Source: an uncultured Acidobacteriota bacterium
GTDB taxonomy: Bacteria; Acidobacteriota; Thermoanaerobaculia; Multivoradales; UBA5704
DNA length: 64,000 nucleotides
Direction: 5' to 3'
Assembly (NCBI GenBank): GCA_963770895.1
Contig: CAVYRF010000001.1
Span: 1,216,001-1,280,000 of the forward strand
Shown here: positions 27,140 to 48,720 of the stretch, one piece after another
Numbering within the stretch: the stretch's first letter is position 1
How the letters are laid out: every line of letters starts with the position of its first letter
The notes under the pieces: model-generated
What the model was told of the DNA's origin: nothing
Database searches by the model: none
What the model saw: only the letters and a program-made list of their open reading frames with translations
Program-made: the position numbers and the translations under genes

Positions 27140-27156
27140 CGTTTGTTCTCCGCTTC

Positions 27157-29704: not shown

Positions 29705-30456
29705 CGCCGCACCTGGTCTGTTGCCTTCGACATGACGAATCCGAGCTCGACCAGCTCCGGCCGGGTTCCCGGAATCAACATCCGATTGCCGGCGGCGAAT
29801 CGGTAGCCCTGGGTCGCCAGGACTTCGGCATAACTCGGCGGCAGAGGGGAGGACATCCGGAAGAGCTTCTGTGCATGGGGGTCTTTGAGCTCCGAAAGGC
29901 TCCCCACTCCGGGCCACCCCTTGACGTCACGAATCAAGGTTTGAGTGAGGTCTGCCCCGAGATAGACGTTTTCGACGAGGACGTTCCCGTCGGAAGTGGA
30001 GATGCCCATGATCTCCCGGACCATGGGCTCGGGATCGGCTGTGCTGTGCTCGCCGTCGGTCAGGTGGCAGACCAGAGGAGCTGGGCGCCCTGCCAGCCTC
30101 GGCATCTCGCGGACCAGGAGATCCCGCGCCACGGCGAAGGCCTCGTATGTCGAGGTCGCCTCGTTCGCGGTGAACTCCGGGATTCCGATATCCACCACCT
30201 GCTGGAGGAGACGGGGACCGCCGAAGATATCGACGACTTTGTCGCTGTACGAGAAAAGAGCGACCTCGTAGCGTGACAGAATCTGTTCGCCTACCAGGGA
30301 GCGCTGGATCATCCTTTCGAAAACCTGTCGAAGGGCTTGATTCACATGCGCGATCTTCGACGCTCCGTCCAGCAGGTCGGTCATCGAACCGCTGACGTCG
30401 ATGAGGTAGATGATGAGTGCGGGGGTCTGCCTGGTTGCCTTGATACCGTAGGGCAT
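29701..30456 (-). CDS. vWA domain protein (TerY/YegL-like)
   Basis: MIDAS motif IDVSGSM (DxSxS), T in ATST, HLTDG; RBS aggaggt before ATG 30456. Confidence 0.9.
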   Translation of the reverse strand: MPYGIKATRQTPALIIYLIDVSGSMTDLLDGASKIAHVNQALRQVFERMIQRSLVGEQILSRYEVALFSYSDKVVDIFGGPRLLQQVVDIGIPEFTANEATSTYEAFAVARDLLVREMPRLAGRPAPLVCHLTDGEHSTADPEPMVREIMGISTSDGNVLVENVYLGADLTQTLIRDVKGWPGVGSLSELKDPHAQKLFRMSSPLPPSYAEVLATQGYRFAAGNRMLIPGTRPELVELGFVMSKATDQVRR

Positions 30457-30710
30457 CGGGATCTCACCTCCTAGCCCACAGAAACCACTTCCTCCCTTCT
30501 TGTTTAGACGGCTGGCAACGAACCCTTGCCTGTCCTCAGCCGGGCTGGGTCGGACGTCGATGCGCGGTCGTGTTGGCGCGCTACACCGCGGACGCGACAC
30601 CGCAAATGCCAACCGTGCAGTCAGCTCCGCAGGCGCCAGGCCTCGCCTACTGGCTGGCGCAACAGCCGCATGGCTGTCGCCGCTTCCGGCAGATCTGGCA
30701 GTGGCGTTAA

Positions 30711-33490: not shown

Positions 33491-33583
33491 CCCATACCTG
33501 ATCCCCGTTCCTTACGGTCCTACACAAAGCCGTCCGCGCCGTGTCTTACCGGTTGAGCCGCGGGCCGTGCCGCAGGGGGAACG

Positions 33584-34951
33584 ATGAACCAGCGCTATGT
33601 GGACTTTTCCTTGGGGATCGAGGGTGCGGATGGAGGCGGTTATCGGGTGCGAGGGTTTTCTCCCGACGCAGAAGCCGAAGGTGTCACCCGGCTCGACTTC
33701 GACCTGGATGCGCTGAGCCGCAGGCTGCGGTCCAGGGTGTCGTCGAGCGATCGGCCCCCATCGCAGGCGCTTGACGTTGCCCATGCAGCCGGCGCCCCGG
33801 CGCCAGGAAGGGAGCTGGCGGAGATTGGCAGCGGGCTGTTCGACGCACTGTTGCCCGGCGAAGTGCGGGATCTGTACGGCACGGCCTGGAGTGGCGCCAG
33901 GGCGGCGGGCCGCGGTCTGCGCATCCGCCTGCATCTGCGCCCGCGCACGCCCGAGCTTGCGTGGCTGACGAAGATTCCGTGGGAAGTCCTCTACGACGAA
34001 AGGGCCGGCAGTTTTCCGTGCCTCAACCCGCTAAGTCCGCTGGTTCGCCATCTCGACCTGCCGCGGGCCGCGGATCGGGCGCCGTTGCAGCTGCCGCTGC
34101 GGGTGCTGGTGGTGGCGGCGAATCCCGCCGGCACGGCCGAGCTCGACCTGGAGGGCGAGCTGGAATCGCTCCAGGCATTACCGCAGGTCCGCGCCAAGGT
34201 GCTGGAGGGTGCGGGTCCCGAAGACCTGCGGCTGGAGCTCCTGCGCGGCGGCTACCAGGTCGTTCACTTCATGGGTCACGGCTTGAGCGATGCGTCCCAG
34301 GGAAGTCTGGTCTTCGCGACTCCGGCGGGGCGCGCGCGGCCGGTCACCGGCAGCGCCCTGTCGCAGCTGTTCCAGGGAGCTCCCGCCCTCGCGTTCACGC
34401 TGCTCAACGCCTGTCACTCCGCCGCCGTGCCGAAGGGCAGCTCCGAACGCTCCGCGGCGGACCCGCTCGCGGGAGTTGCCGGCGCGCTGGTGCGCGGCGG
34501 CCAGGCGGCTGTCGTCGGCATGCAGCTGGCGATCCGGGATCGCGCGGCGCTGGTCTTCAGCAAAGTCCTCTATGCGCAGCTCGCCGACGGCAAGCCCATC
34601 GAGGCTGCCGTCGCCGAAGCCCGGCTGGCGCTCTACCTGCGCGATACGAGCGTCAGCGATTGGGTCGCGCCGGTGCTTTTCCTGCGCGGCGCGGACCGGC
34701 GCGTCGAGGAGTCAGCGGGAAACGATCAGCAGCCGGGCCAGGGCGAAAGGGACCGCATCTGGACAACTTACAGATCCGACCAGATCGAAGGCGGAGAACT
34801 CGTGTTTCGGGGAGCGTTCGACGCCGGAACATCGCCGGATCGATCCAGGACCAGACCCCGCGATGTCCACGCGCTCGTGGAGACCAGGACAACGAAGGTC
34901 GACAAACTGATCATCACCGGCTCCGAACAGCAGGACCGCCGCGAGGACTGA
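33584..34951 (+). CDS. CHAT domain (caspase-like) protease
   Basis: IPWEVL, LRVLVVAANP, catalytic His VHFMGHG, catalytic Cys LLNACHS, VVGMQ..I.D, W..PVLF. Confidence 0.93.
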   Translation: MNQRYVDFSLGIEGADGGGYRVRGFSPDAEAEGVTRLDFDLDALSRRLRSRVSSSDRPPSQALDVAHAAGAPAPGRELAEIGSGLFDALLPGEVRDLYGTAWSGARAAGRGLRIRLHLRPRTPELAWLTKIPWEVLYDERAGSFPCLNPLSPLVRHLDLPRAADRAPLQLPLRVLVVAANPAGTAELDLEGELESLQALPQVRAKVLEGAGPEDLRLELLRGGYQVVHFMGHGLSDASQGSLVFATPAGRARPVTGSALSQLFQGAPALAFTLLNACHSAAVPKGSSERSAADPLAGVAGALVRGGQAAVVGMQLAIRDRAALVFSKVLYAQLADGKPIEAAVAEARLALYLRDTSVSDWVAPVLFLRGADRRVEESAGNDQQPGQGERDRIWTTYRSDQIEGGELVFRGAFDAGTSPDRSRTRPRDVHALVETRTTKVDKLIITGSEQQDRRED

Positions 34952-34952
34952 G

Positions 34953-36155
34953 ATGGCCGCGGCCCTGTGGCATGGCATCTGGTCCGACAACTCGCCGGCG
35001 GGCAAGTTGATCGTTCTGATCATTCTGGCGCTCCTGGCGTGGGCGTTGCGTTGCGGTTCCCGGCATCTCAAGCGGTACCGGCGCGAAGAGGACAACCTTT
35101 CGCGTGCGATCGCAAAGCTCCGGGAGACCACGGTGCGGCGGGTGCCGGCTGCGGATGCAAACCCGCAGCCAGGCGAAGCGATCGCGGACCAGGGCGCCGC
35201 CGGCGGCGCTGCCGGCGAAGGCAATGTGTCGCCCGCCGACCTCGCCGTCGTGCGGTCGGACCTGGCTGCGGAAAGCCTGATCGCCGAGCGCCTGGCGGCG
35301 ATCGAAAAGCTCCGCACCCGCCAGGTGCGAGTCAATCCCAACGCGCTCCAGCAGCTCAGCCTGGCGCGCGACCAGGCGCGGCCTGGCATGGCCGTGCCCG
35401 GAGCCGTCGCGGGGCTGGCGACGATGCTCGGTCTGCTCGGTACGTTCATCGGCCTGGCGGTCATGGTGCAGCAGATTCAGTTCGCCCTGCCGCAGAGCTC
35501 CGGCGCCGTCACGGCCAGCTCCTGGACGCAGTCGGTCGACAACATCTCCCGCATCCTGGGCGGTATCAAGACCGCCTTTTCGTGCTCCCTCGTGGGCATC
35601 GTCTGTTCGATCCTCGCCGCGGTGACCAACTTCCGTCTGCGGTCGGCCCAGGGCCTGTTCTTCGAGCGCCTGGAGCGCTTCACCACCGAGGAGCTGCTGC
35701 CCGCGGCGGTTCCCACGGTGGAAGACGAAAGCCTGCTGGACCGTGTTTCGTTGCAGCTGGAAAACTCGTTCGCCCGTCTTGACGACATCTACCGGCAGAA
35801 CCAGGACGCCTTGCAGGACATGACCGGCGCCCAGCGCGCCTTTGTCGACATCGTGGAGGAGATCCGCAAGATCACCCGCAGCGAAGCGTCCAGAAACCTG
35901 GAAGGGGTCCTCGAGCAGGTGTCCCAGACCAACCGTTCGGTGCTGACGGTGGCGGAACAGCTGCCGAAGGTCGTCAGCGCGATGGAAACGGGACAAAGGC
36001 GCCTGCTGGACCGGTTTTCCACCCTGGTTGCGAACGTTGCGTCCCTGTCCACCGTGCCACCGCCGCCGTCGCCGGGCCGGACGCAGTGGACGTGGCCCTC
36101 CGTCGTGGCGCTGGTCGTGGCCGGCATCCTGCTGCTGCTCTTCGTCCGCCGGTGA
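34953..36155 (+). CDS. MotA/TolQ/ExbB-family (ZorA-like) membrane protein
   Basis: N-terminal TM; TMLGLLGTFIGL and IKTAFSCSLVGI channel helices; helical tail; extra C-terminal TM. Confidence 0.85.
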   Translation: MAAALWHGIWSDNSPAGKLIVLIILALLAWALRCGSRHLKRYRREEDNLSRAIAKLRETTVRRVPAADANPQPGEAIADQGAAGGAAGEGNVSPADLAVVRSDLAAESLIAERLAAIEKLRTRQVRVNPNALQQLSLARDQARPGMAVPGAVAGLATMLGLLGTFIGLAVMVQQIQFALPQSSGAVTASSWTQSVDNISRILGGIKTAFSCSLVGIVCSILAAVTNFRLRSAQGLFFERLERFTTEELLPAAVPTVEDESLLDRVSLQLENSFARLDDIYRQNQDALQDMTGAQRAFVDIVEEIRKITRSEASRNLEGVLEQVSQTNRSVLTVAEQLPKVVSAMETGQRRLLDRFSTLVANVASLSTVPPPPSPGRTQWTWPSVVALVVAGILLLLFVRR

Positions 36156-36164
36156 GGTGTCGGC

Positions 36165-36836
36165 TTGGATCTGCAACAGCGGCGCTCGACGGTCGAAAGA
36201 CCCAGCATGCCGGTGCCGTGGCCGGCGATGCTCGACCTCATCACGTCCACCCTGATGGTGTTCATGCTCGTCACCACTCTCGGCACGGTGTTTGCCAGCG
36301 ACGACATGGAAGCGGCGCTGATGCGCGCCAGGCAGGCGAAGTTCCTGGAGGATTTTCAGCAGGAGTTCGCGGCCGAGATCGGCCGCAACGAGATCCGCGT
36401 CGAACGTCACCTCGACTTCGTGCAGATCCTCTTCAGCGACGGCGTGTTATTCCGCCTGGGCGACCACCACCTGGAGGCCGCGGGGCAGCGCCTGGTGGCC
36501 CGCTGCGCCCGCGTCTTCGCCCAGGCGGGAGCCAGCGGTTACGAGCAGATCCAGGTGGAAGGGCACACCGACAGCGTGCCGCTCGACCGCCCCTCCTATC
36601 CTTCCAACAATTGGGAGCTCTCGACGGCCCGCGCGCTCAGCGTCGTCGAATTTCTCGGCCGCGAGCAGCCCGCGTTCGCCGCGGTGCTCTCCGCGAACGG
36701 ATATGCCTCGAATCGACCGGTGGCGAGCAATCTCACGCAGGCCGGCCGCGATCTCAATCGGCGGATCGAAATCCGCCTGTTCTTTTCCGGCCCGCACCCG
36801 AGCGGGCGGCAATCCCATGCGGAGAGCCCGCGGTGA
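36165..36836 (+). CDS. MotB/OmpA-family (ZorB-like) protein
   Basis: TM WPAMLDLITSTLMVFML with the conserved Asp; peptidoglycan-binding motifs VEGHTD, NWELS.ARA..V, GY...P, NRRIEI. Confidence 0.92.
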   Translation: MDLQQRRSTVERPSMPVPWPAMLDLITSTLMVFMLVTTLGTVFASDDMEAALMRARQAKFLEDFQQEFAAEIGRNEIRVERHLDFVQILFSDGVLFRLGDHHLEAAGQRLVARCARVFAQAGASGYEQIQVEGHTDSVPLDRPSYPSNNWELSTARALSVVEFLGREQPAFAAVLSANGYASNRPVASNLTQAGRDLNRRIEIRLFFSGPHPSGRQSHAESPR

Positions 36837-37612
36837 GCCGGAGCGCCGCCTGGTTTCTGCGTCGCTATCGCGATGGCAACCTCTCCAGCTCGCGCATGCG
36901 TCAGCTCCTGGAGCGGGAGCTCGAGCGCCTGGTCGCCGGCCACAGCGCCCTGCAGTCCGAGATGGACGAGCTCCGCCGCGCGGCTGCGGATCGCCTGGCC
37001 GGCTTCGACACCGCCTCGGACCTGGCCTTGCGCCGGTTGGGCCAGGATCGCTTCGACCTGGCGCTGCCGGCGATCGAAAGCGCCGCCCGGGACCTGCAGG
37101 AGCTGCGCCGCTGCGTGGCGGTGGCCGTCGATTGGCGACGGACCAGCAGCGCCTTGACCGGCGTCGAAAAGCTTTTGTCTCCGGGCCTGGAGTCACAGGC
37201 CACGCCGCGGGTGCTGCGGCGCCTGCGCGACCTGGCGCGCACGCTCCTCGACGACGGCGAAGCGCGGAAAGCGCGGTTCGTGGTTTTGCTGCTCGCCGAT
37301 CAAATCCGTCTGCTCACGACGCGCGGTCGGGGAGACGTGCCGGCTGTCTGCCAGCGATGGATCGACGATCTCGCGACGCAAGATCCGATGGCGGCGGCGC
37401 AGATCAGCAAGCTGGCGCACGAAGGCTTTCACACCCTGGCGGAGCGGCTCGCGGACGATCTACTGGCGGCGCTCGCGGCCGGCGATCGCGCGCGGCGAGC
37501 GTCCGCGGCGGGAGGCTCGCTCGGTCCGATCGCGCGAGACCTCGCCGCCGTGCGACGCCAGGCGAGCGTGGTCCACAGTGCATTGGCGCGGTGGCTCGAA
37601 ACCACCGCTTGA
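36833..37612 (+). CDS. Alpha-helical hypothetical protein
   Basis: GTGA overlap with the motB-like stop; heptad-rich MSRSAAWFLRRY..LLERELERL. Confidence 0.75.
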   Translation: MSRSAAWFLRRYRDGNLSSSRMRQLLERELERLVAGHSALQSEMDELRRAAADRLAGFDTASDLALRRLGQDRFDLALPAIESAARDLQELRRCVAVAVDWRRTSSALTGVEKLLSPGLESQATPRVLRRLRDLARTLLDDGEARKARFVVLLLADQIRLLTTRGRGDVPAVCQRWIDDLATQDPMAAAQISKLAHEGFHTLAERLADDLLAALAAGDRARRASAAGGSLGPIARDLAAVRRQASVVHSALARWLETTA

Positions 37613-37630
37613 TCCAGACGGAGGGCGGCG

Positions 37631-38896
37631 ATGCCTCAAACGTTGACGGAAGAGAGTACGGTTGCCTGGAGAGTTCAAGGCACCGGTCCCGATCCGGCGC
37701 GCTTCCTGGTGATCTTCAAGAAGCTCGGCGCGGGAAAGGTCCTGCACGCGACTCTTCGCCCCGGTGAGGTGTTCCGGCGGCCGGTCTGGACTTCCGCCGA
37801 CTCTTTCGAAACCTACGCCGTGTCGGCGGACCCCAACCTGCGCCACGAGTTTCACCGCAAATACCTGTCGAGCGAGCAGACCTGGACGTTCACCCTGCAC
37901 TACAAGGTTCACTTCCGGATCGGCGACGCCGCGCGCCTGGGATTGTGCCTGTCCACCAGCGATCCGCTCGAAAGGCTGGAGGGTGAGATATCCAACCTGC
38001 TGGGCGCCACGGCGCGCCGTTACTCCTGGGCGGCGATGAAGCGCGAAGGTGAGGATTTCGGGCTGCGACTGCGCGAGGCGGAGACGACGGACGGCCTGGG
38101 GGAAGCGAAAACCAACTTCCGGCGCCTGCAGGATTTTGCCGGCACCCTGGGATTCGAGCTGCGACACCTCGACGTTCTCCGCTCGTTGACCGAGCCCGAC
38201 CTGGAGGACGAAACGACCAAGCGAACCAACCTGCGTCGCGGTGAGATCGCGCGCAGCAACCACCAGGCGGAGATGGAGGAGGAGCAGCGCAGTCACGAGC
38301 GCCAGTCGCAGCGAGACCAGCACAAGATCGAGCGGGACACCGCCATCGCCAGGTCCTCCCAAGCCTTGCAGGGGCTGGGGCGGCTGCGCCTGGTCCTGGA
38401 CACCATCGCGCGGGAAAGCAGCATCGTCATCGGGCAGGCGGCCAGCGGCGTGCACTCGTTCCCGGCGATCCAGGACGCTCTGCGCGAAGTGCAGGAGATT
38501 CAGCAGACCCTGACGGCGATGTCCGGAAACGCCGGCCCCGCCTTGATTTCGGCTGCCGCAAGCGATGCCGCCGACGGTGCCTCCGGCGCAGGCACGGTGC
38601 AGCTCAACGGGCGCCGGCCCTTGCCGCTGGAAGCCGTCGTTGCCGACGCGTGCCGCCACCTGCGCGTCCTGGACCAGAACCCGCAGGACCAGAACCGCAT
38701 CCTCGCCTCGGTGCTGCACCTGATCGCGGAGGCCGGATTGGGGGCGGAGGCCGACCAGGAGTTCCTGACCGGGCTGCAAGACGACCTCGAAGCACGGCTG
38801 GAACCCGTGCGCTCGGCACTCCCCGCGGAGACGATTCAATTCCTGGAGTCGATCCTGGTGCTCGATCGTCTCCGCGACCGGCTGTCGCAGCCCTGA
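37631..38896 (+). CDS. SPFH/Band-7-like protein with coiled coil and C-terminal helical domain
   Basis: FTLHYKVHFRIGDA..DPLERLEGEI..LL...AR..LGFELRHLDV matches the Band-7 topology, followed by a charged coiled coil. Confidence 0.65.
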   Translation: MPQTLTEESTVAWRVQGTGPDPARFLVIFKKLGAGKVLHATLRPGEVFRRPVWTSADSFETYAVSADPNLRHEFHRKYLSSEQTWTFTLHYKVHFRIGDAARLGLCLSTSDPLERLEGEISNLLGATARRYSWAAMKREGEDFGLRLREAETTDGLGEAKTNFRRLQDFAGTLGFELRHLDVLRSLTEPDLEDETTKRTNLRRGEIARSNHQAEMEEEQRSHERQSQRDQHKIERDTAIARSSQALQGLGRLRLVLDTIARESSIVIGQAASGVHSFPAIQDALREVQEIQQTLTAMSGNAGPALISAAASDAADGASGAGTVQLNGRRPLPLEAVVADACRHLRVLDQNPQDQNRILASVLHLIAEAGLGAEADQEFLTGLQDDLEARLEPVRSALPAETIQFLESILVLDRLRDRLSQP

Positions 38897-38903
38897 GCGC
38901 GTC

Positions 38904-41435
38904 ATGGACGACCCCCTGCACGACGCGCTGCCGGAACTGTCCCCGCCCCCGGCCCCGCTGCCGTTGGCGTCGCCGTCGCCGAAAGACGGGCAGCAGGCGC
39001 CGGCCGGCCAGGGTCCGGCGACGGCCGCGGACTCCTTGGCCGAGGATGGCCATCCCCGATCGCCGGCGGGGAAGGATGACCTGGGCGACGCCAATGCCTT
39101 CTCGTACACCTCGGCAGCCATCACCTCGGGCATTGTCTCGGCGGGTCACATCGAGATAGCGGGGCAGGTGTTCAAGCAGCAGTTCCATATCACCGCCGGC
39201 GCGGGCCGCATCCAGCCGGTCCCGCTGTCGACGCGACACTTCACCGCCCGCACCTCCCAGGAGCTGGAGCGCGGTGAAGAAGAGCTGATCTTCGATCCCC
39301 TGCAGGTCGGCGAGCTGAGCGCCGCGTTCGAGCAGACGCGGATCCTGATCCTCGCCGGCGAGCCCGAGGTGGGAAAGGGGACCCTGGGCCTGCAACTCGG
39401 TGCGCGGTTCAGCCGGTCGCTTGGGCTGCGGGGCATGCTCGCCTGCCAGAGGCTCGCCTCCGGCGTCCAGGTCGATCTCGAAAGAGTTGCGGACGACGCC
39501 ACCTTCGGTCACCACGTGGTGCTGTTCGAGGACGCCCTCGCGGGCGACAACTCCGATCTCAGGGCCTTTTTCAAGACCATCGATTCCCTGCGCCTGACGA
39601 CCCTCAAGGAGAGGCTCCGCAAGAGCGCCTCCGCCCTGCTCCTGACCGTCTCCTCGGCGGCGGTCGCCGAGTTCGAGCGACGCCTCGCAGGCCTGGGCAT
39701 TCTCTACCCGGTCGCCCCTCCGGCGCCGGAGCTGCTGGTCCAGGCGCTGCATCGCTTTGCGACCAACCTGGCGCAGCAGGGACCGACCAAGGCGGCGGCA
39801 CTGTCTTTTCTTGCCGCCCACGCGATGGAAGCGGCGCACGAACTGCGGACGGTGCCGCGGGCAGCTCGCTTTGTCCATGAGTACCTGGTGGACGTCGTCG
39901 AAGCCAGGGTGCCTCTCCGGCACGCTCTGGGTCGCATGGACGACCTGTCGCAGTGGTTGACCGCCGACCTGGCGGACGACCTGGACGCCCAGGCGGCCGC
40001 GCTCACCATCGTCCTCGGCTCGGCCGTGCCGCCAGCCGCCGGCGTGCCCTGGCTCGCGTACGACCAGCTGCGCCGCCGGATCACCGAGCTGCTGCGCCAG
40101 GAGCTGCGGCTTGCCGCGGACCAGCCGTCGTCGCCGCGCGAGCTTGGGCATGCCTTTCTCGACCGTGCACGTGCCACGGTCGCGGCGATGCCCGCGCCGC
40201 TGTCTCCGCTCGTCCGTTTCCGCGACGAACGCGATCCCGAGCGTCTCTGGCAAGCCCTGGTCGGGCCGGCCCGAGAGCTGGCAACGCGACTCCTGCCGCT
40301 GCTCCGCGAGCTGGCGGAGGGACCCGATGCGGAGCTGCGCGAGATCGCCGCGACGGCCCTGGGGCGGCTCGGCCTGCTCGGCCCGGCCGACCTGGCGGTG
40401 CCGCTCCTCCGGGACTGGCTCGGCACGGAACGGCAAGAGCAGCTGGGCCTTTTCCTTCTCGGCAGCGCCAACAGCGGGGAGGAAACCTACCGGGACCTCT
40501 GCCTGACCACTCTGCGCCAGCGGGCGCGCGAAGGCGGTGCCGACCAGGAGGTGGTCGCGGTGCGCTGTCTCGGCTCGCTGGGGCTGCCGGATCCGGCGGT
40601 GCCGATCGGCGAGCTCTGCATGTTTGCCCAGGAGCGCCTGCCGATCCAATTCGACCTGTTGCGCCAGGTCGAAGCGGAAATTGCCCAGAAGGCGCGAACC
40701 ATCCGCCGCCGCATCGCCCCGCACCAGGTCAGCGCGATGATGCGGGACCTGCACGAGACGGCGCACGGCCTGCTGATGGCGATCCTGGTGCCGCAAGACC
40801 GCATCCGCCTGGTGGCCGCGGTGCAATACGCCTTGGTTGGAGTCCTGCTGTCGCAAGGCGGCGATCCCGGCCCCGTCCTGCGCCAGGTGCTCACCAGGAT
40901 GGCAGCGGACAAGGGCAACCTCGCCCCGCTTCTGGCATGCATCTTCCTGCACAGGCACGGGGTCTTCGATCTCCTGGACCGCTACAAATGGACTTCCGGC
41001 GCCTGGAGCGACGAGACCAGCCGCTTTCTCCTGGCATCCAGGCCGGGCGAGCGGGACCCCCAGGCGCTCCGCGAGCTGCTGGAAGCGATTTTCTCCGCCC
41101 TGACGTCGTTCCCCGGGCTTTTCCGCTTTCTGCTCGAGCAGCGGTTCCTCGAGCTCCTCAAGGCCTGGAGCCGCGACGGCTGCGCGGCGCCCGGCCTGCG
41201 GCCCACCGTCCTGCGGCTGCTGGCGGCGCTGCGGGCCGCCCCGGACGTGGATCTGCGCCGCGCCATGGAACACTTTCTGATCGCCGATCCCGATCTCGTC
41301 GAACGCGGGTCGCGGCTCCGTGCTCTCGCCCAGGACGTGCGCGACGGCAAGGATCTGGACGCCGCTCCCGTTGCCCTGCCGCGGCCGCGCCGCCTGCCGT
41401 CCTGGCTGGGAAAGCGGCAGGCAGCGGGCGAGTAG
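38904..41435 (+). CDS. STAND-like P-loop NTPase with C-terminal HEAT/ARM-like repeats
   Basis: ILILAGEPEVGKGT (Walker A variant), VVLFEDA (Walker B), LLLT sensor strand; LLRELA..D.ELREIAATALGRL HEAT-like repeats. Confidence 0.75.
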   Translation: MDDPLHDALPELSPPPAPLPLASPSPKDGQQAPAGQGPATAADSLAEDGHPRSPAGKDDLGDANAFSYTSAAITSGIVSAGHIEIAGQVFKQQFHITAGAGRIQPVPLSTRHFTARTSQELERGEEELIFDPLQVGELSAAFEQTRILILAGEPEVGKGTLGLQLGARFSRSLGLRGMLACQRLASGVQVDLERVADDATFGHHVVLFEDALAGDNSDLRAFFKTIDSLRLTTLKERLRKSASALLLTVSSAAVAEFERRLAGLGILYPVAPPAPELLVQALHRFATNLAQQGPTKAAALSFLAAHAMEAAHELRTVPRAARFVHEYLVDVVEARVPLRHALGRMDDLSQWLTADLADDLDAQAAALTIVLGSAVPPAAGVPWLAYDQLRRRITELLRQELRLAADQPSSPRELGHAFLDRARATVAAMPAPLSPLVRFRDERDPERLWQALVGPARELATRLLPLLRELAEGPDAELREIAATALGRLGLLGPADLAVPLLRDWLGTERQEQLGLFLLGSANSGEETYRDLCLTTLRQRAREGGADQEVVAVRCLGSLGLPDPAVPIGELCMFAQERLPIQFDLLRQVEAEIAQKARTIRRRIAPHQVSAMMRDLHETAHGLLMAILVPQDRIRLVAAVQYALVGVLLSQGGDPGPVLRQVLTRMAADKGNLAPLLACIFLHRHGVFDLLDRYKWTSGAWSDETSRFLLASRPGERDPQALRELLEAIFSALTSFPGLFRFLLEQRFLELLKAWSRDGCAAPGLRPTVLRLLAALRAAPDVDLRRAMEHFLIADPDLVERGSRLRALAQDVRDGKDLDAAPVALPRPRRLPSWLGKRQAAGE

Positions 41436-41509
41436 CCGGCGACCCTACACATTTTCAGCAGGTCCGTGTCTTATGCGCTGGGGAACGCTTAGGGCAAGGA
41501 GGCTCTGCA

Positions 41510-43408
41510 ATGAGCGAAATCATCGCCGGTGCTTTGACCACGATCGACACGCGGACCCGAGGGATCGAAGCCGCCATCCCACCGATCGTGCAGGCGCTCG
41601 TCGCCATCGACTCGAAAGTGCGGACCATCGATCGCCAGGTGGATTCCCTCGCGGCGAAGCAGGGAGAGACCCGGCAGTTCCTGGCTTCGTTCTATGAGGA
41701 GTTCCACGGCTACCTCGACGACTACAAGCGGCGGACCGAGCTGCAGCTCGCCGAGACGCGGATCGTCAAAGTGCGCCAGGAGATCGAGCGCCGCTTCGGT
41801 CACCATGACGACGTGCGCCGCAGGGTGACCGGCATTTTGCAAGCCACCGACCTTGCCATCGTGCGTGCCGAGACCGTCCGCACCACCGCCGAAGAGCTGA
41901 TGCTCGGCGCGCCCCGATATTGGCTCGCGCCCGGTCTGGTCGCCCTCATGGGGTGGATCGTCGGCGAGCGCGACATGGCCGAACGCGCGCTGGCGGAAGC
42001 GCAGCGGCGGGACGCCTACAAGACCTGCCTGTTTTTCACCCTCCTCTGCCGGCGCGCCGGCCGCGCGGAGGCGATGAGCCGTTGGCTGGAGATCTATCTG
42101 CGCCTGATCGATCCCCAGGCGGTCGATCGCGAAGTGGTGGTGGTCCTCGACGCCGTCGCCACCGGCATCCTGGGCCGGGAAGCGCAGGAGGTCTTCTGGC
42201 AGACCAGCCTCGGATGGATCGAAGCCATGAACCAGGTTCCGGGACACGTGGAGACCCAGGCGCGGCGGTGGATCGCGGTTCTGGAAGCCGAACGAGGCCG
42301 CGTGGCGGCCAACGAGTTCGTCCAGCTCAGAGCCCACAGCCCCATGTGGCCGGCCCTGGCGGCCGCCCTGGTCAACGTGCGCCGCAACCCCCTGGTCGCG
42401 GCCAAATTCCGCGCGGTCGTCGAAACCGCGACCATCCTGCCGCCCACCGTCGTCTCTGCCGTCGACGGCCTGCTCGACACCATGGTCACCCGTTTCGATG
42501 ACGAAGAGCTGCCGCTGCGCACCCAGGAGCGCCTGTTGCAGCTCATCCTGGACGAAGAAGGGGACCGGCAGGCCGCCGAAGCAAAGATGGCCGTGCAGCA
42601 AGACGCCCTCCAGGAGAAGGTTTCGTTCGTCGGCCGGCTCACCGACATTCTCATGTACCCGGAGCAGGCCGGAGCCTCTGCCGCCGCGCAACGCTTCGCC
42701 GCGGCCTGCACGCGCGACTGGATCCTGGCCGCCCACCACGTGCTGGTCAAGAAGGACACCGCGGAGATCCCCCAGGACGTCGCTCTCCAGATCGGAGACT
42801 GGCACGGCACCAGCCGGGACGGCCACAACGGCCACGATCTGACCGAAAACCTCGCATCCTTCTTCGCCGCCCGCAAGGCGAACGAGTCAGCGCAGATCAA
42901 GCTGCCAACCTATGCCTGGGTGTCCCTGATCGTAAGCGTCCTCTTTGCCGCCGTGGGGCTGGCAAGCGGAGCCTCGCCAGTCTTCACCCTGGCCTTCCTG
43001 GCGATCGGCGGCCTGTTCTTTCAGATCGGCAGGCAAAGCCAGGCAAAGAGGCGGAAGCTCCTCGCCGCGGCCCTCGACGCCGAGCTCAGCAACGCCAGCC
43101 AGCTCCTTGATGCCGTTCTCGCCGACCTGGCAAGCTACTGCCGCAACTGGACCCTCGCCCACGCCGCGGCCCACGACGTAGAGCAGATCCTGCGCTCCAT
43201 CTCCCCACAAACTACCCGCTACCAGGCACCACAAGCCAACCCCGTCGCCCGCCTGACCGCCGCCACGGCCAGCAGTCGCGGCAGGGCCAGCGGCGGCGCC
43301 AACGGGGGCAACGGGGGCAACGGTACGTCTGCCCTGGCCGAGACCTTTGCGCCCTGGGATCTCCTGCCTCTCCCCGTACCGGTGCACGACGCTGTACCCG
43401 TTGCCTGA
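41510..43408 (+). CDS. Coiled-coil/helical protein with two C-terminal TM helices
   Basis: RBS aggagg; N-terminal heptads; PRYWLAPGLVAL; TMs YAWVSLIVSVLFAAVGLA and VFTLAFLAIGGLFF. Confidence 0.85.
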   Translation: MSEIIAGALTTIDTRTRGIEAAIPPIVQALVAIDSKVRTIDRQVDSLAAKQGETRQFLASFYEEFHGYLDDYKRRTELQLAETRIVKVRQEIERRFGHHDDVRRRVTGILQATDLAIVRAETVRTTAEELMLGAPRYWLAPGLVALMGWIVGERDMAERALAEAQRRDAYKTCLFFTLLCRRAGRAEAMSRWLEIYLRLIDPQAVDREVVVVLDAVATGILGREAQEVFWQTSLGWIEAMNQVPGHVETQARRWIAVLEAERGRVAANEFVQLRAHSPMWPALAAALVNVRRNPLVAAKFRAVVETATILPPTVVSAVDGLLDTMVTRFDDEELPLRTQERLLQLILDEEGDRQAAEAKMAVQQDALQEKVSFVGRLTDILMYPEQAGASAAAQRFAAACTRDWILAAHHVLVKKDTAEIPQDVALQIGDWHGTSRDGHNGHDLTENLASFFAARKANESAQIKLPTYAWVSLIVSVLFAAVGLASGASPVFTLAFLAIGGLFFQIGRQSQAKRRKLLAAALDAELSNASQLLDAVLADLASYCRNWTLAHAAAHDVEQILRSISPQTTRYQAPQANPVARLTAATASSRGRASGGANGGNGGNGTSALAETFAPWDLLPLPVPVHDAVPVA

Positions 43409-43550
43409 CTCGGAGCCTCTCCAGCTGGAACAGTGCAGCCCATCCGCGTGGTGCCGCGCAGCTGGGCCGCGCGAGCGGCGAGCCGGCTGTCGCAACCCGG
43501 CTCTGCCGCTGGAGAGCGTTTCGCAGTGGGCGTTCGATGCGTCGTGGCTG

Positions 43551-43931
43551 CTACGATGCGTCGGTAAAGTTCATGGTCATGGACCAAGGGGTTTGATTGC
43601 TGAGCGCGTAACGGAAGGCCGGCGGACCGAAGATACTCTCCTCTGTAACCCCCAGGTTCCCTGTTTCAGGCACCTGCCCCACCTCCTGCTGATAGAACTT
43701 GCGCCCGCCATCGTAATCTTTTACTTGCGAGAAGATCACGCCCATCATGCTGCTGTCGCCGGCACCATCCCAAGCGACACTGACGGTCGCTGTCTGGCCC
43801 GTGGCCAAGGTATAGACGTCTGTAGCGACCTGCCCGTTGATCAGTAGCTGTTGATCGTCCCAATTGGGGTCTCCGGCGATAAAAACCTCATGGGTCGAGT
43901 GATTGGCCGCGGTCACGATCGGCTTGCTCAT
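43551..43931 (-). CDS. Small beta-rich hypothetical protein
   Basis: RBS agggag; MSKPIVTAANHS..; alternating beta pattern; no signal peptide. Confidence 0.7.
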   Translation of the reverse strand: MSKPIVTAANHSTHEVFIAGDPNWDDQQLLINGQVATDVYTLATGQTATVSVAWDGAGDSSMMGVIFSQVKDYDGGRKFYQQEVGQVPETGNLGVTEESIFGPPAFRYALSNQTPWSMTMNFTDAS

Positions 43932-44336
43932 GAGCTCATTCTCCCTCTTCGCATCTGGATGCCTGGCCTGCACAGCTGCGCCGAGCAAGCGCCAGCTCCG
44001 GTCTGTCAACCCCAACGTCCGACCCAACGGCGTCGCGACGACCCGAGCAGATTGTACAGCGTTATCTTGTAGAAGCAATGTCAATCGACCGCTGTCCGCC
44101 GCCGCCGCCAAGCGTCGAGCCGGTTCAATTGACAATCAGCTATGGCTGAAACCTCGGCAGCTGCACGCGGGCCGGCGCGCTTACTTCTGCTCCCGCTCTC
44201 CGTACTGGTACGCGACGCCACGCCCCTTGTCTGACTCCTGTCCGCTCCCGAGGCCCCCGAACTGTCGGCGAGCGCGTGGCGGCCACCCCAGGGCGACCGA
44301 CGGAGGCGTGGGCGCCACGCTCGTCAGGGGCGCCCG

Positions 44337-44531
44337 TCAGCAGGTGCAGGTGCCGATTTCAGTGTAGTCCGGGCACTTCGGGTTGCAGAATGATCCGCCA
44401 TCGGTGACGCAGCGGACGGTGGGGCAGGCGGGAGTCTCCACGTTCCCGGCGGCGCGACGGAGATCCATCCGCTGCAGCTGCCGCAGCGTCTCGCGATAAA
44501 GGACCAGCTTCCTGGGCTGTGCTTTCCTCAC
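44337..44531 (-). CDS. RiPP (lanthipeptide-like) precursor peptide
   Basis: RBS gaggagg then GTG; leader RKLVLYRETLRQL..LRRAAG; core with 6 Cys, 6 Thr and 1 Ser. Confidence 0.75.
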   Translation of the reverse strand: MRKAQPRKLVLYRETLRQLQRMDLRRAAGNVETPACPTVRCVTDGGSFCNPKCPDYTEIGTCTC

Positions 44532-44882
44532 GATTCCTCCTCTCGCCCCGCGTGGCGGCTCGGTGTGGAGCGCGTCCCGCGGAGCCTCTCTAGGAGGAAC
44601 AGTGCCGCTCGCGTCAGGTCCCGCGCCGTGGCCGCCGCACGGCTGGGACGATCTCAGTCCGCGGCGCTGCCGAGGTGGTCGCCAAAAGCCGGCGGCAAAC
44701 AGCAAGCGGGTGCCCATGTCGCCGCCCGCAGGGCGCGCCCGCTCTACACAAAGTCGCCGTTGCGGTGTCTGCCAGTTGCGTGGCGGGCCGTGCCGCAGGG
44801 TGGGCGCGACCTTCCTAAGCAAAAGTGGTGCGCCAGGCAGGGATGGACTCTGATGGTGGCGCACGCACCGTAAGGAGGCATC

Positions 44883-46667
44883 ATGAGGTTTCAGCTTCTT
44901 CCAATGGAGAGCCGATGGGCGGCGTGGCTGGCCGCGCCGCGGTTGTGGTTGTCGGCAGCAAGGCCGCTCATCCTGGTGCTGGGCGCCCTTGCGCCGGCAG
45001 CGAACGCCTGGGCGCAATGCCCCGCGGTGGGAGACGATACCGGCTGCGGCATCGTCATCACGATCACCAATCAAGGCGCCACAGTGTCCATGACCGGCCA
45101 GGGTCCCTATGACGGCGTCGACGACACCCTTGTCGGAGTGGTCAACAACAGCACGCTGGCGGTGAGCTCCCTGGACCTGCAGTCGAGTCTTGATATCTTT
45201 GGCTTTGATGGAGACGGAATCGATACATATGGAATCGCCGGCAACGGCAACGACAACACTGGTTACGGAGGTCCGAACGCATACTTCACCAACATCAGCG
45301 CCGATCAAACCTCAGGTACGGTCAACTTCGTCACGCCTATCGCCGCCCATGGCGGTACGGCGTTCTTTTCGCTTGAAAACGCGCTGACCTCGGCCACCGC
45401 GTGCTCCTCGGTCATCAACAATGCCGTGCCGAAGCCGGGCGGTGGCGGTACGGAGATCACCACGACGTTCACCCCCAACCTCGGATACACGCTCGCGCAG
45501 GCCGCGCAGCTGTGCGGTTTTATTGAGTTCGACTGGCAGCAGACGATCCGGTCGCTGCCGTTGCCCAGTCCCTTCCTTGCCGCGGGCAGCTCGATACCCC
45601 TGCATGCGCCGCCGCCGTTCAATGACCCGCCGCCCAACGGCTATGCGTATCAGAACCCGCCAAACGCCGTGCAATTGCCGGTCTATTACAATCTGTTCAC
45701 CCCGGCCTCCAACGATCTATCTCTGGCCGCCAACGAAACTGACACGACGCTGTCGTTTTATGACAGCCCGGCCGACCCCTGTTTACCCGGCGGTAGCGGT
45801 GGATTCTGCGGCGGTATGACTGCGCCCGCGGGCAGCAAGTTGGCTTTCACCACGCACCTGGTGGGGATCGCGCGAGCGCTGCCGGGCGCGACGGTGGTGG
45901 ATACGGGAATCGGTTTCGACTGGACTGATACGTACAACGGCACGGCCGGCGGCATCGCCGTGATCAACAGCAGCATGCCGGTCGATCCCGGCAGCGGCAC
46001 GGGCGGCATCACCGTCACGGCCTACAATCCCACCTCCACGTTGCAGCCGGTGACCGTCACCTCGGTGAACGGAGGCGCGCCGGGAGCGCTGCCCAGCCTG
46101 ACCTCGGGAACCGCCTGCGACGGGGTATTCAGCGGCACCTTCACCGGCGGCATCACGGTCTTTCCTGGTCAGAACTGTACGTTCGTCGATGGCACGATCA
46201 CCGGTGACGTGCAGCAAAAAGGAGGTACTCTGGTCCTGTCCGCCGACCTGATCGGGGGCAGCATCAACGTCAAGGGCGGGTCGTTCACCTTCGATTCCTT
46301 CTCGGAAGTGCAGGGCGGCGTCGACGTGCAAAAGGCCACGGCGGTGCTCAATGCGATCTGCGACTCGACGATCTTCGGCGATTTGCAGGTCCACCAGAAC
46401 ACGTCCCCGGTCCAGATCGGCTCGTCTGCCGCTGGCTCGTGCGGGAGCAATACGCTGGTGAGCGACCTGGTGGTGTTCTCCAATAGCAGCTCAACCTCGA
46501 TCGTGGGCAACGTCGTCAGCGGCAGCCTGAACGCCTATAGTAACAGCGGTGCCACCGCGGTCTTCAGCAACAGTGTGGCGCAAAAACTTCTGTGCCAGGC
46601 AAACTCTGCGATTACCGGCGGCATGAACAACGCGGCTCAAAAGCAGGGCCAGTGCGCTGCCTTTTGA
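44883..46667 (+). CDS. Secreted Ser/Thr/Gly-rich multidomain protein with a C-terminal beta-helix-like region
   Basis: RBS taaggagg; signal peptide ending ANAWA-Q; paired Cys; GxxxVxG repeats. Confidence 0.85.
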   Translation: MRFQLLPMESRWAAWLAAPRLWLSAARPLILVLGALAPAANAWAQCPAVGDDTGCGIVITITNQGATVSMTGQGPYDGVDDTLVGVVNNSTLAVSSLDLQSSLDIFGFDGDGIDTYGIAGNGNDNTGYGGPNAYFTNISADQTSGTVNFVTPIAAHGGTAFFSLENALTSATACSSVINNAVPKPGGGGTEITTTFTPNLGYTLAQAAQLCGFIEFDWQQTIRSLPLPSPFLAAGSSIPLHAPPPFNDPPPNGYAYQNPPNAVQLPVYYNLFTPASNDLSLAANETDTTLSFYDSPADPCLPGGSGGFCGGMTAPAGSKLAFTTHLVGIARALPGATVVDTGIGFDWTDTYNGTAGGIAVINSSMPVDPGSGTGGITVTAYNPTSTLQPVTVTSVNGGAPGALPSLTSGTACDGVFSGTFTGGITVFPGQNCTFVDGTITGDVQQKGGTLVLSADLIGGSINVKGGSFTFDSFSEVQGGVDVQKATAVLNAICDSTIFGDLQVHQNTSPVQIGSSAAGSCGSNTLVSDLVVFSNSSSTSIVGNVVSGSLNAYSNSGATAVFSNSVAQKLLCQANSAITGGMNNAAQKQGQCAAF

Positions 46668-47209
46668 CCCTTCACGCAGGCGTCGCGCTGGCAAGGCGAC
46701 GCCTGCGCCTCCTGTCGCTCGTCCTTGCGGCCCTGTGCGCCGTGCCCGTCTCGGCGAGCGACAAGGCCGCGCTGGCGGTGTGCCGGAGTATCGAGGTCCG
46801 ATCGCTCCTGGTGTCGGCCGAGCGTGCCAGGACCAGTCGCGACATCAAGGCTGCAGCGATCGACGTGGCGCCGCTCAAGGACGGAGGACTCACCAGCCAG
46901 TTGACGGTGCTGGGTCCGCCCCTTGGTTCGATGGATTCGCCGGTCATCGCGACCGAGGTCGCCTGCTCGCCATCCGGCGTCGTGCTCACCGCGACCATCA
47001 TGCGGTCGGCCGGCTTCAACGGCGCCGTCCTGCAAAATGCGCTCTGGCAGCCGATGATTCGGCTCTCAGTACGCCTCCTGCGGGCTGATGTCCTTTTCCG
47101 CACCATCTGGCACATGCGCCGCACGGATGGCCGCGAGCTCACCTTTGCCCAAACCTCGCCCCTGCCAGGACGCCGATTTCCCCTGGTGCTCACGCGGCGG
47201 CTGAAATAA
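46664..47209 (+). CDS. Small exported hypothetical protein
   Basis: TTGA overlap with the upstream gene; signal RRRLRLLSLVLAALCAVPVSA. Confidence 0.55.
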   Translation: MTLHAGVALARRRLRLLSLVLAALCAVPVSASDKAALAVCRSIEVRSLLVSAERARTSRDIKAAAIDVAPLKDGGLTSQLTVLGPPLGSMDSPVIATEVACSPSGVVLTATIMRSAGFNGAVLQNALWQPMIRLSVRLLRADVLFRTIWHMRRTDGRELTFAQTSPLPGRRFPLVLTRRLK

Positions 47210-47439
47210 CCGAGCCTGATCGATGCCGCGTACGGCCACCACAGGTCGTCCAACTGGATTTTCCGGCTCTTCCCAGGCTTCATGGACGGCCTTGCGGCGC
47301 TGAGCTCGAGTCAAGCCCGACGCCCGCCCGGCCCCCGGGTCATCGAGGGACCTCCGTGCTCGCGCGACCCGTCGGTATTGGGGGGCGGCACACTTTGGCT
47401 TAGCGTCTTACGCCGGATCCAGCCGAGCTGGCCCGCTGC

Positions 47440-47612
47440 TTGATCCTGCTTACCAGCAACGGGACCAGGAAGTGCTCGGCGCCCTCTTCTTCGACGTCCG
47501 CCACAGGCTGATCGGCGAGAAGGAGATCTACCGGGGCACCCTGCACCAAGCCAGGTCGAGCCCCGCGAGATCCTGAAGGAGTGCCTGTTGAGAGGCGCCG
47601 GAGGCGTGGCCA
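47440..47612 (+). pseudogene. RadC/JAB domain fragment
   Basis: DQEVLGALFFDVRHRLIGEKEIYRGTL, frameshift, then VEPREILKECLLRGA; truncated before the HNHPSG motif. Confidence 0.75.
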
Positions 47613-47925
47613 ACCAACTCCCGGCTGGTCAAGCTGCTCTGGACCGTGGCCGACCTCTACGACGTAGCGCTCGGCGACTTCGTCGAGAACGTCGCCTTGA
47701 ACGCCCTTGCCGGCCGGAAGTCCTTCTCGAACCCAGCCCTGGAGCGAATCGGCCTCCTCGCCGGCGTCTACGGTTACGACCTGGCGGCGCAGGCGGCCAA
47801 GGCGCGCGCCATCACCTCTCCGCTGGAAGGAGCAGCCCAATGAGTCTTTCGACACCGTGAACGTCGATGTGCTCTCCGCGACCTTCCAGACCAAGCAGTT
47901 GGGCGAGGGGATGCTGACCTACCAG

Positions 47926-48720
47926 CTAACCGAGGAACGCCGCCTGTTGCGCGGCAGGTCGCGCGTCGCCTCGTAGTGCAACCCTTGTCTCTGGCCAGCC
48001 CTGCCATGAGTAGCCCCGGCCCAGGTCCGAACCCTTGCAGCGCACCCCCTCCAGCTCGAAGCTCAGCCCGGACATGCGCCCCGTCGACGCCACGTTCGTT
48101 TGCACTTCCACGCCCTGCGCGTGCAGGCGCTCCACCAAGACAGGCAAGCTCGGCCGATCGCGCGCCGCGACGTCCACATGTTCCTGCAAGCGGGCCTTGA
48201 TCGACACCTTGCCGGTGCGCGCAAAAGCCGCCAGCTCGCTCCGGCCGGGCGCCGCGCGCCTGGCCTCGCGGCTCGGCGCCACCTGCGTCAGGCCGGACTG
48301 CAGCTCCAGGTCGCGCACGATCCCTTCGCCACGCTTGCGCTCCTGAAAGTCCGGCACCCGCTTGCCGTGGCCGTCGACCCGATTGGCGATGATGTGCACG
48401 TGGTCCAGGTCCGTATCGTGATGGCGCACCATCACCCACTGCGAGTTGCCATATCCCAACCGGTTCAGGTACTCCTCGACGAAGCGCCGCCAGTCTCCCT
48501 CCGTCAGGCGATCCGCCGGCGCCGTGGTCAAGCTGGCATGAAACACCGGCTTCTGCACCGATGGATTGAGCGCCCTGGCGATGCCGAACTCGTGTGCCAG
48601 TTCCCGCGCCGTCTCGCCGGCCATGGTGCCGCCGATCAGCTCCGGCCCCTTGCGCTCGGCAAGGGCGTAGTTGAGCGCGCCGCGAAACCCCTTCCCCGGA
48701 TCGCTAATCTTTTGGATCAT
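47926..48720 (-). CDS. Relaxase (MobA/VirD2-like, MOBP), probably 3'-truncated
   Basis: GFRGALNY (catalytic Tyr), PVFHASL, HHDTDLDHVHIIANRV (3H motif), KGSDLGRGYSW. Confidence 0.92.
   Translation of the reverse strand: MIQKISDPGKGFRGALNYALAERKGPELIGGTMAGETARELAHEFGIARALNPSVQKPVFHASLTTAPADRLTEGDWRRFVEEYLNRLGYGNSQWVMVRHHDTDLDHVHIIANRVDGHGKRVPDFQERKRGEGIVRDLELQSGLTQVAPSREARRAAPGRSELAAFARTGKVSIKARLQEHVDVAARDRPSLPVLVERLHAQGVEVQTNVASTGRMSGLSFELEGVRCKGSDLGRGYSWQGWPETRVALRGDARPAAQQAAFLG

Follow-up and report, generated by a model that had tools for sequence, protein, structure and literature searches.

A MotA/MotB-type stator, an SPFH-fold protein and a STAND NTPase behind an exchangeable CHAT or TIR gene: a candidate modular conflict system in an uncultured Acidobacteriota bacterium

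A stretch of 64,000 nucleotides (nt) from an uncultured Acidobacteriota bacterium (Thermoanaerobaculia; contig CAVYRF010000001.1 of assembly GCA_963770895.1, positions 1,216,001 to 1,280,000), which is referred to as the window throughout, carries a cassette of seven genes at 33584-43408. In this cassette, a CHAT protease gene is followed by a divergent MotA/MotB-type stator pair, a helical protein without a known family (P0004), an SPFH-fold protein, a STAND-type NTPase and an all-helical protein. With a probability of roughly 0.55, the locus belongs to a modular conflict system, probably one directed against phages, consisting of an invariant five-gene core, a swappable effector and a variable tail. 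This reading is favored because the core is invariant, CHAT and TIR replace each other at the effector position, the distribution is patchy and the flanks differ between loci, and also because of the optional parts, the tight operon packing and the upstream element belonging to the cassette. The cassette is described as rare and, as far as sequence comparison can tell, horizontally moving.

The seven open reading frames (ORFs) are all located on the plus strand, translate without internal stops and are separated by successive intergenic gaps of 1, 9, -4, 18, 7 and 74 nt. A first-pass annotation of this DNA had described seven co-oriented, intact genes with this spacing, and its coordinates, gaps and frames proved to be exact. 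The cassette comprises the following features:

33521-33560, plus strand: conserved non-coding element, candidate promoter/operator, from the upstream alignment of six loci
33584-34951, plus strand: CHAT protease (P0001), caspase-like (clan CD), 455 amino acids (aa), effector position; Pfam CHAT
34953-36155, plus strand: stator A subunit (P0002), MotA/ExbB/ZorA-like, divergent, 400 aa; Pfam MotA_ExbB
36165-36836, plus strand: stator B subunit (P0003), MotB/ZorB-like, 223 aa; Pfam OmpA, PADLOC ZorB1
36833-37612, plus strand: P0004, helical, no known family, candidate adaptor, 259 aa
37631-38896, plus strand: P0005, SPFH-fold protein without membrane anchor (predicted model), 421 aa
38904-41435, plus strand: P0006, STAND-type P-loop NTPase (nSTAND3-like) with HEAT-like repeats (family-level profiles), 843 aa
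41510-43408, plus strand: P0007, all-helical, facultative tail gene with a hydrophobic hairpin, 632 aa

Conservation of the core and exchange of the effector gene

With an alignment of 17 SPFH relatives, four loci were found in 185,579 species genomes and four on metagenome contigs. According to tblastn, L001, L002, L006 and L008 carry the complete set of seven genes in identical order, whereas L004 features six genes plus a seventh cut at the contig end and L003 features six. L005 and L007 are short contigs, and L002 and L006, which gave near-equal figures, may represent one population. The search for MotA-like relatives yielded 121 clusters, about 47 of them with at least 64% identity and the rest at 25-60%, mostly 33-55%. 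The order MotA-MotB-P0004-SPFH-STAND was kept in all 13 stator-family loci of sufficient length (the window, L001-L004, L006, L008, L041-L045 and L047), with MotA identities of 33-79%; about 40 MotA-family proteins at 40-55% identity, together with their gene contexts, stand outside this count. Since this order is shared by many independent loci, the arrangement is not due to chance. The co-occurrence in other genomes, which the first-pass annotation had proposed to survey, was thus encountered in every locus that could be judged.

The gene preceding MotA is the variable part at the front of this core. It encodes a CHAT protein in eight loci (the window, L001-L004, L006, L008 and L047), a TIR protein in four, a weakly TIR-like protein in one and an untyped protein in another. 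The loci L041-L045, whose MotA is 33-36% identical to P0002, feature a small protein, a MotA-like protein of 400-419 aa and a MotB-like protein of 213-228 aa, followed by a protein of 306-314 aa, an SPFH-like and a STAND-like protein. Here, TIR_2 was recognized ahead of MotA in L041 (3.1e-16), L042 (3.7e-11) and L045 (3.3e-15), and in the cut locus L046 the TIR protein of L041 was matched at this position by tblastn (9e-13). The small protein of L043 matched TIR weakly (1.7e-5, 25.7 bits, below the cut-off of 28). Conversely, L047 carries CHAT (4.3e-33) ahead of a MotA of 35% identity, followed by MotB, SPFH and STAND. This alternation of CHAT and TIR at one gene position adds support to a putative immune role. 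Behind STAND, the tail gene is either P0007, a trypsin-like peptidase (L041, L043 and L044) or missing. As a side observation, a response regulator of the sigma-54-dependent type, with receiver, AAA+ and Fis-type helix-turn-helix domains, is encoded in L041 at 769-2115, about 280 nt upstream of the TIR gene.

The patchy distribution is reflected by a stator-family profile of 23 aligned sequences, which matched 2 of 401 phylum-sampled and 8 of 401 class-sampled genomes, and by P0005, which matched in 5 of 41 related genomes. One SPFH homologue of 64% identity is labelled Gaiellaceae, the other named records being Thermoanaerobaculia. In L015, L016 and L017, CHAT, SPFH-like and STAND-like genes stand side by side with 25-39% identity to the window proteins, and no MotA, MotB or P0004 match was found within about 20 kb of them. 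A further candidate, L022 (G061), was rejected as a family member, as it features a distant MotA/MotB pair and lacks the other genes.

Spacing in L001, L008 and L041-L045 resembles the tight packing of the window. In addition, an element of about 40 nt, which precedes the CHAT start codon by 24-63 nt, was recognized in an alignment of six loci, with the pattern TA(A/C)ACAA...CGTGTCT...GAG(C/T)C being common to the window, L001, L002 and L008 and partially present in L004. Since the flanking genes differ in each locus sharing it, the element is regarded as travelling with the cassette, as a candidate promoter or operator. A scan with the sigma-70 consensus revealed no promoter-like site, and a terminator scan gave three terminator-like sites, located inside genes, compared to 6.5 expected by chance. 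The G+C content of the window amounts to 0.70-0.75, with a lower zone of 0.62-0.70 at about 24 to 52 kb; at the third codon position it reaches 0.80-0.87 in five of the seven cassette ORFs, the values for P0004 and P0007 not being included.

Features of the encoded proteins

The stator A subunit P0002 matches Pfam MotA_ExbB with an E-value (E) of 8.3e-7 (29.3 bits, cut-off 22.9). It is also matched by 16 PADLOC ZorA models, the best of which, ZorA1 (1e-8, 32 bits), covers the membrane core only, and by four NCBIfam ZorA subfamilies (best ZorA_1, 26.2 bits compared to a cut-off of 190). NCBIfam TolQ is weaker than ZorA (E 0.032, 14 bits, cut-off 221), and PomA reaches E 0.074 (12.3 bits, cut-off 341). 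Hydropathy indicates four hydrophobic helices (residues 16-34, 148-175, 207-229 and 380-398). The cytoplasmic tail of about 150 aa terminates in the C-terminal membrane helix, an architecture common to the 23 family members aligned. In these sequences, T164 and S210 of the membrane helices are invariant or nearly so. Tail residues 241-320 feature 91-93% pairwise identity among orthologues, which exceeds most of the protein and would be expected of a signalling interface. The family profile retrieved no solved ZorA or MotA chain and no other meaningful match among PDB sequences. In the whole genome, PF01618 has three matches, and the other two are ExbB/TolQ-like with 1.8e-31 and 3.2e-27 compared to 2.7e-6 for P0002.

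The B subunit P0003 consists of one membrane helix, with D24 as the conserved Asp, and a peptidoglycan-binding domain of the OmpA type located in the periplasm (Pfam OmpA, 1.3e-11). PADLOC ZorB1 matches it over its full length (residues 19-216, 2.9e-22), and D24 is invariant in 6/6 sequences, as is the block H134-T135-D136...N149...L152-S153...R156-A157. With the PDB profile, flagellar MotS, MotB and PomB chains ranged from 1.4e-21 to 3e-14 (MotS 1.4e-21, MotB 1.8e-20), and the ZorB chains 8vvn_B and 8vvi_A reached 3.8e-9 and 2.4e-6 in alignments beginning at the membrane helix; both entries are identified as ZorB structures via PMC11890865. The periplasmic domain thus gives higher scores for flagellar chains than for the solved ZorB chains. 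Flagellar families were not detected among the window ORFs scanned, and neither a match at the level of the PomA equivalog nor a flagellar context was found. Hence the first-pass calls of a MotA-like protein and a MotB-like protein with membrane Asp and OmpA domain stand, and the label Zorya-like holds insofar as the best A-subunit profiles are ZorA and not flagellar; it does not extend to membership in Zorya or to the periplasmic domain of P0003, which scores higher with flagellar proteins.

For P0001, Pfam CHAT scored far above its cut-off (E 2.2e-23, 83.6 bits compared to 24) and the His/Cys dyad H232/C277 is invariant in 9/9 aligned relatives, in agreement with the intact dyad claimed in the first pass. 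PADLOC 2.0.0 matches of this protein are limited to SAVED_CHAT (weak) and BovA. In L003, translation revealed a stop codon separating CHAT from MotA, so that two genes are present there as well.

The adjacent P0004 has no family in Pfam, PADLOC or NCBIfam and no match in the ESM Atlas. Its orthologues are 35-61% identical (36-65% by tblastn, the lowest values of the seven proteins), and it is confined to stator-bearing cassettes. Comparison by hhalign indicates homology to the 306-314 aa protein of the TIR-type loci (probability 95.6%, E 1.2e-8, 217 columns), with three of the five TIR-type sequences being included and those of L042 and L044 left out. A complex prediction for the MotA tail (227-378) with P0004 gave scores of 0.01 and 0.03 (mark 0.32) and weighs neither way.

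P0005 showed no Pfam match at E<=0.1, including Band_7, and its counterparts in L045 and L015 none at E<=0.01. Its AlphaFold2 model (predicted local distance difference test, pLDDT, 73) features an SPFH domain at about 20-190, a long helix at 189-298 and a C-terminal helical bundle at 332-419. Foldseek returned 34 matches at E<=1e-3, led by HflK/C (4.5e-7) and including prohibitin, stomatin, flotillin, erlin and vault. VIA aligned 110 of the 112 residues of the stomatin SPFH domain (Z 11.9, root-mean-square deviation 2.7 A), and its first 34 rows were all SPFH. No 19-residue window reached a Kyte-Doolittle value of 1.6. The earlier term Band-7-like is therefore adequate for the fold and has to be dropped for membrane anchoring, as the protein lacks a hydrophobic segment. 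The family is rare, with 34 proteins including the query in 5.8 billion, and on the basis of the model P0005 is expected to assemble as a ring or cage.

P0006 alone stays below the cut-offs (nSTAND3 0.0091, 16.1 bits compared to a gathering score of 27.2; HEAT_2 0.0015), and the first-pass assignment as STAND with HEAT repeats was upheld at family level. Among the 21 profiled members of the 31-protein family, nSTAND3 was found in 18 (best 3.3e-6) and HEAT_2 in 12 at E<=0.01. The counterparts of the TIR clade and of the stator-less L017 gave nSTAND3 values of 1e-5 to 3.5e-3, all below cut-off. The P-loop is intact, with Walker A G157-K158-G159 and E209 being invariant and D210 nearly so in the 21 sequences, and the only matches of the profile in the PDB were alphaRep/HEAT-type chains, consistent with helical repeats. 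The disordered N-terminus is followed by a conserved 39-residue motif (residues 62-100, window 39087-39203) and then by the NTPase. This motif, with a consensus of about V.F.S..VSA..IE.AGQVF.QQFN.T and alternating hydrophobic residues, is specific to the STAND genes of CHAT-type cassettes. A weak hhalign alignment had given a lead to an amyloid-like signalling motif common to the C-terminal tail of CHAT and the N-terminus of STAND. This candidate was discarded: the hidden Markov model of residues 62-100 matched six STAND genes only (<=3.6e-14) in 1,944 six-frame fragments, and the best CHAT tail reached E 2.1.

The model of P0007 is all-helical (pLDDT 82) with a hydrophobic hairpin at 468-508, which accords with the two membrane segments noted previously. 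Foldseek gave no match to PDB folds at E<=1e-3; weak leads were Umb1 (8e-3) and the alpha-pore-forming toxins MakA, SmhB and AhlB (0.04-0.12), and the best VIA Z of 8.9 lies at the background level for helical models. Pfam searches over 28 family members revealed scattered coiled-coil noise only, and the ESM Atlas unnamed clusters only. Still, the family is large, with 672 clusters at E<=1e-3 and 310 at <=1e-30, and a profile built from 28 of its members found it in 6 out of 201 genomes from the class. P0007 follows STAND in the window, L001, L002, L006, L008 and L004, where the contig end cuts the gene. Moreover, the family occurs in a different operon, which comprises genes for proteins of ~920 aa, 159 aa, a P0007-like protein (573 aa), ~180 aa and an AAA ATPase (PADLOC IetA-like, 4.9e-25):

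L029, 5744-13072, with equivalents in L030, L031 and L032: P0007-family five-gene operon, conserved in four genomes of the class

In L016 (11480-15934), 159-aa-like, P0007-like, 179-aa and AAA genes directly follow CHAT-SPFH-STAND; the window is without the other partners of this operon. As P0007 is absent in L003 and sited in a different operon in L029-L032, it appears from gene content to be a facultative, shuffled and exchangeable module, and the earlier view of a seven-gene unit with P0007 as a fixed member had to be abandoned. Besides, the P0007-family operon of L032 was noticed to adjoin a gene pair (1305-3617) for a ZorA-like protein of 542 aa and a ZorB-like protein of 225 aa.

Known systems, proposed mechanism and alternative explanations

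Three Zorya subtypes are described in the literature (PMC11890865, PMC11946911), in which the ZorA tail relays a signal to cytosolic effectors (PMC11946911). The cassette resembles them by a MotA/ExbB-like protein with a cytoplasmic helical tail, a MotB-like protein with a membrane Asp and an OmpA-type domain, the encoding of stator and soluble partners in one operon, ZorA/ZorB models as best profile matches and an alignment of the P0003 profile with the ZorB chains 8VVN and 8VVI from the membrane helix onward. In contrast, no relative of ZorC, D, E, F or G is present, and PADLOC 2.0.0 returned no match for P0004-P0007. The E. coli ZorA tail comprises residues 223-729 and projects about 70 nm (PMC11946911), compared to a cassette tail of about 150 aa ending in a membrane helix, and the partners here are a protease or TIR protein, an SPFH and a STAND protein instead of DNA-binding or nuclease proteins. 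In other words, a ZorB-type subunit is found, and a long-tailed A subunit at the level of the ZorA models and type-specific partners are not. Because of the missing ZorC-G relatives, the weak ZorA matches and the short tail ending in a membrane helix, the sequences argue that the cassette is not a member of Zorya I-III.

Other comparisons lead to STAND and SPFH proteins. Bacterial immune systems repeatedly feature CHAT, TIR and STAND (PMC7159879, 10.64898/2026.01.04.697583, 10.1101/2024.10.24.620036), and STAND/NLR-like immune proteins such as Avs and bacterial Apaf-1-like proteins likewise feature a P-loop STAND domain and helical repeats with caspase-like or TIR effectors. However, effector, scaffold and NTPase are separate genes here, a MotA/MotB-type stator lies among them, and the repeat region of P0006 is not hypervariable. 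Kaur et al. (2020; PMC7159879) list Band7-like domains among the scaffolds of vWA-MoxR systems and report OmpA domains for iSTAND systems, in a study the main text of which contains no occurrence of 'MotA' or 'MotB', its supplementary neighbourhood tables being outside this scope. SPFH cages (HflK/C-FtsH, QmcA-YbbJ, stomatin) share with P0005 an SPFH domain followed by a long helix and the encoding with a protease. Nevertheless, P0005 lacks an anchor and a Band_7 match, and its protease partner is a cytosolic Cys-His CHAT enzyme, not an AAA or serine protease, which can be replaced by TIR. TIR and caspase-like enzymes also serve as immune effectors in Type IV Thoeris and other defence modules, and a bacterial system uniting the two has been reported (10.1101/2024.10.24.620036), whereas here they are alternatives at one gene position rather than partners, and PADLOC showed no Thoeris match. 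In the full-text literature searched, which did not extend to subscription journals, there is no description of a stator joined to CHAT/TIR, SPFH and STAND or of a 'Zorya IV'. Neither PADLOC 2.0.0 nor this literature yielded an already named system, as the first-pass annotation had anticipated for a new one, and the cassette is regarded as a variant of stator-based defence and of STAND/NLR-like systems outside Zorya.

By analogy with such systems, we infer a defence role and the envelope as what is sensed. In the mechanism proposed, the peptidoglycan-anchored, ion-conducting stator would report via its conserved cytoplasmic tail when the envelope, the cell wall or the ion-motive force is disturbed, in analogy to ZorAB (PMC11946911). 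P0004 as an adaptor and the SPFH assembly would couple this signal to the STAND NTPase, whose NTP-dependent assembly may release or activate CHAT. The protease could then cleave cellular targets or P0007, resulting in growth arrest or death of the infected cell. In favor of the conflict reading, the CHAT His/Cys dyad, MotB D24 with the OmpA block, the STAND Walker A motif and MotA T164/S210 are all intact, and the window cassette adjoins PADLOC defence-model matches upstream and mobilisation genes downstream. A more far-reaching version is held tentatively, with odds nearer to one in three: the cassette might represent a fourth, mechanistically distinct class of stator-coupled immunity, in which a 5:2-type ion motor fixed to the cell wall acts through an adaptor and SPFH cage on a STAND switch and a plugged-in effector, be it a caspase-like protease or a TIR enzyme.

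Several observations weigh against a conflict system with the stator as its sensor. The CHAT family shares no domain with the STAND or the SPFH family (hhalign probability 0.2 and 0.4). The 168-aa ORF ahead of MotA in L044 matches no family. In the P0004 orthologue of L002/L006 (about 9451-10203), matches are limited to residues 1-136 and 221-255 and lie in different frames; the gene appears to have an internal deletion and a frameshift common to the two assemblies, the other six genes being intact. The C-terminal helical region of P0006 is as conserved as the NTPase and in this respect differs from a phage-protein sensor that evolves fast. The assignments of P0005 to SPFH and of P0006 to STAND proteins are based on a fold prediction and on sub-threshold profiles. 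The flanks of L001 and L002/L006 are metabolic (DoxX, amidohydrolase, FGGY kinase, polyketide synthase/non-ribosomal peptide synthetase, PKS/NRPS) and do not resemble defence islands. On viral contigs, one distant MotA-like match was obtained and the cassette was not found. PADLOC 2.0.0 detects no complete system in the cassette, as the first-pass annotation had expected, its matches being of ZorA/ZorB type and, weakly, SAVED_CHAT. Finally, because CHAT-SPFH-STAND occurs without a stator, the stator is dispensable for the persistence of this core, and its role as a sensor is not compelled.

The last point leads to the best surviving alternative, which is nonetheless unlikely: the stator might be the effector and STAND the sensor, with a MotA/MotB-like channel being opened, e.g., by proteolysis of the MotB linker or plug, and the ion-motive force collapsing. 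Unplugged stators leak protons and halt growth. Both the ion-binding Asp and polar residues within the membrane helices show strict conservation, and the stator-less loci would allow sensing to reside in STAND. Still, the exchange of CHAT and TIR ahead of the stator would be redundant if the channel itself kills, and no other part of the cassette is as conserved as the stator (68-79% identity among close loci by tblastn), the conservation of its tail being expected of a signalling interface.

It is even less probable that two or three independent systems, i.e., a minimal stator, CHAT-SPFH-STAND and P0007, merely travel together. The stator-less loci, the relatives of P0007 in a different operon (L029-L032) and beside the core in L016, the lack of P0007 in L003 and the 74 nt gap ahead of it would fit such a composition. 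However, MotA-MotB-P0004 is interleaved, with the effector gene in front, SPFH behind and gaps of 1-18 nt or 4-nt overlaps, and this order persists in 13/13 loci, the TIR clade among them, even where MotA identity falls to 33%. Moreover, where the sequence sufficed, no MotA of this family was seen without SPFH and STAND, the MotA-like proteins of L022 and L032 belonging to other families. Similarly improbable is an accessory machine for envelope stress or membrane protein quality control, with an SPFH cage regulating the protease and a Tol/Exb-like motor energising it, since the partnership of SPFH proteins with membrane proteases, for which they are best known (HflK/C-FtsH and QmcA-YbbJ being among the fold matches), the metabolic surroundings of several loci, which also count against a defence role, and the STAND C-terminus that is not hypervariable are opposed by the very patchy occurrence (8/401 class and 2/401 phylum genomes), flanks that differ per locus, a TIR-domain protein replacing the protease in the sister clade, the presence of a STAND NTPase, the defence-type neighbourhood of the window and two ordinary ExbB/TolQ-type genes in the genome that score far higher on PF01618.

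The cassette family bears on how Zorya-type stator defences sense infection and signal inward, as it offers a natural experiment with one stator-adaptor-SPFH-STAND core, two unrelated effector enzymes and a stator-less sister form. If it is defensive, ion-driven motors, SPFH cages and NLR-like switches would be united in one operon, and the MotB Asp, the STAND Walker A Lys, the CHAT Cys and the TIR Glu are sites for point mutants separating sensing from killing. The fourth class, if true, would be the first link of rotary ion motors to NLR-type signalling, and ZorAB-like stators would be general, exchangeable infection sensors instead of parts of one nuclease system. If not defensive, the cassette would still represent an unusual envelope machine, so far found mainly in uncultured soil bacteria.

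Genomic surroundings

The genes around the cassette in the window comprise the following:

24671-27214, minus strand: dynamin-family GTPase (Pfam 8e-15; PADLOC LeoA 1.3e-12)
27157-28365, minus strand: kinase-like protein (PADLOC MkoA 1.3e-7)
28325-29917, minus strand: PP2C phosphatase, upstream of the cassette
29701-30612, minus strand: vWA protein (PADLOC TerY 3.2e-23)
47926-48720, minus strand: short MobA/VirD2 relaxase-domain gene, 264 aa
48704-49096, minus strand: NikA-like mobilisation gene
51778-51852: tRNA-Gly(tcc), 8.4 kb downstream of the cassette

Judged by its profile matches, the row at 24671-30612 upstream of the cassette is reminiscent of a TerY-P-type defence triad joined by a dynamin-like protein. 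The earlier description of decayed neighbouring genes was not confirmed, nor was that of the region as a tRNA-anchored island, as the 3' half of the tRNA-Gly has no second copy in the window (up to 3 mismatches) and integrase families gave no match among ten scanned ORFs at 43.9-52.9 kb, a part of the ORFs located there; these scans set no borders to the island. Between the cassette and the mobilisation genes, 43409-47900 features ORFs without a Pfam match, including one of 594 aa (44883-46667) with unusual codon-position G+C values of 0.56/0.54/0.79. The flanks were different in each locus compared, comprising DoxX and amidohydrolase, FGGY kinase and PKS/NRPS, a Ser/Thr kinase with tetratricopeptide repeats, or an SNF2-type helicase. 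Sequencing runs listed with near-identical DNA included no RNA runs. Near-identical DNA occurs in soil-metagenome contigs, where four runs of one study contain 0.28-0.63 of the words sampled and a single run from another study contains 0.40, and the run with the highest share may be the source sample itself.

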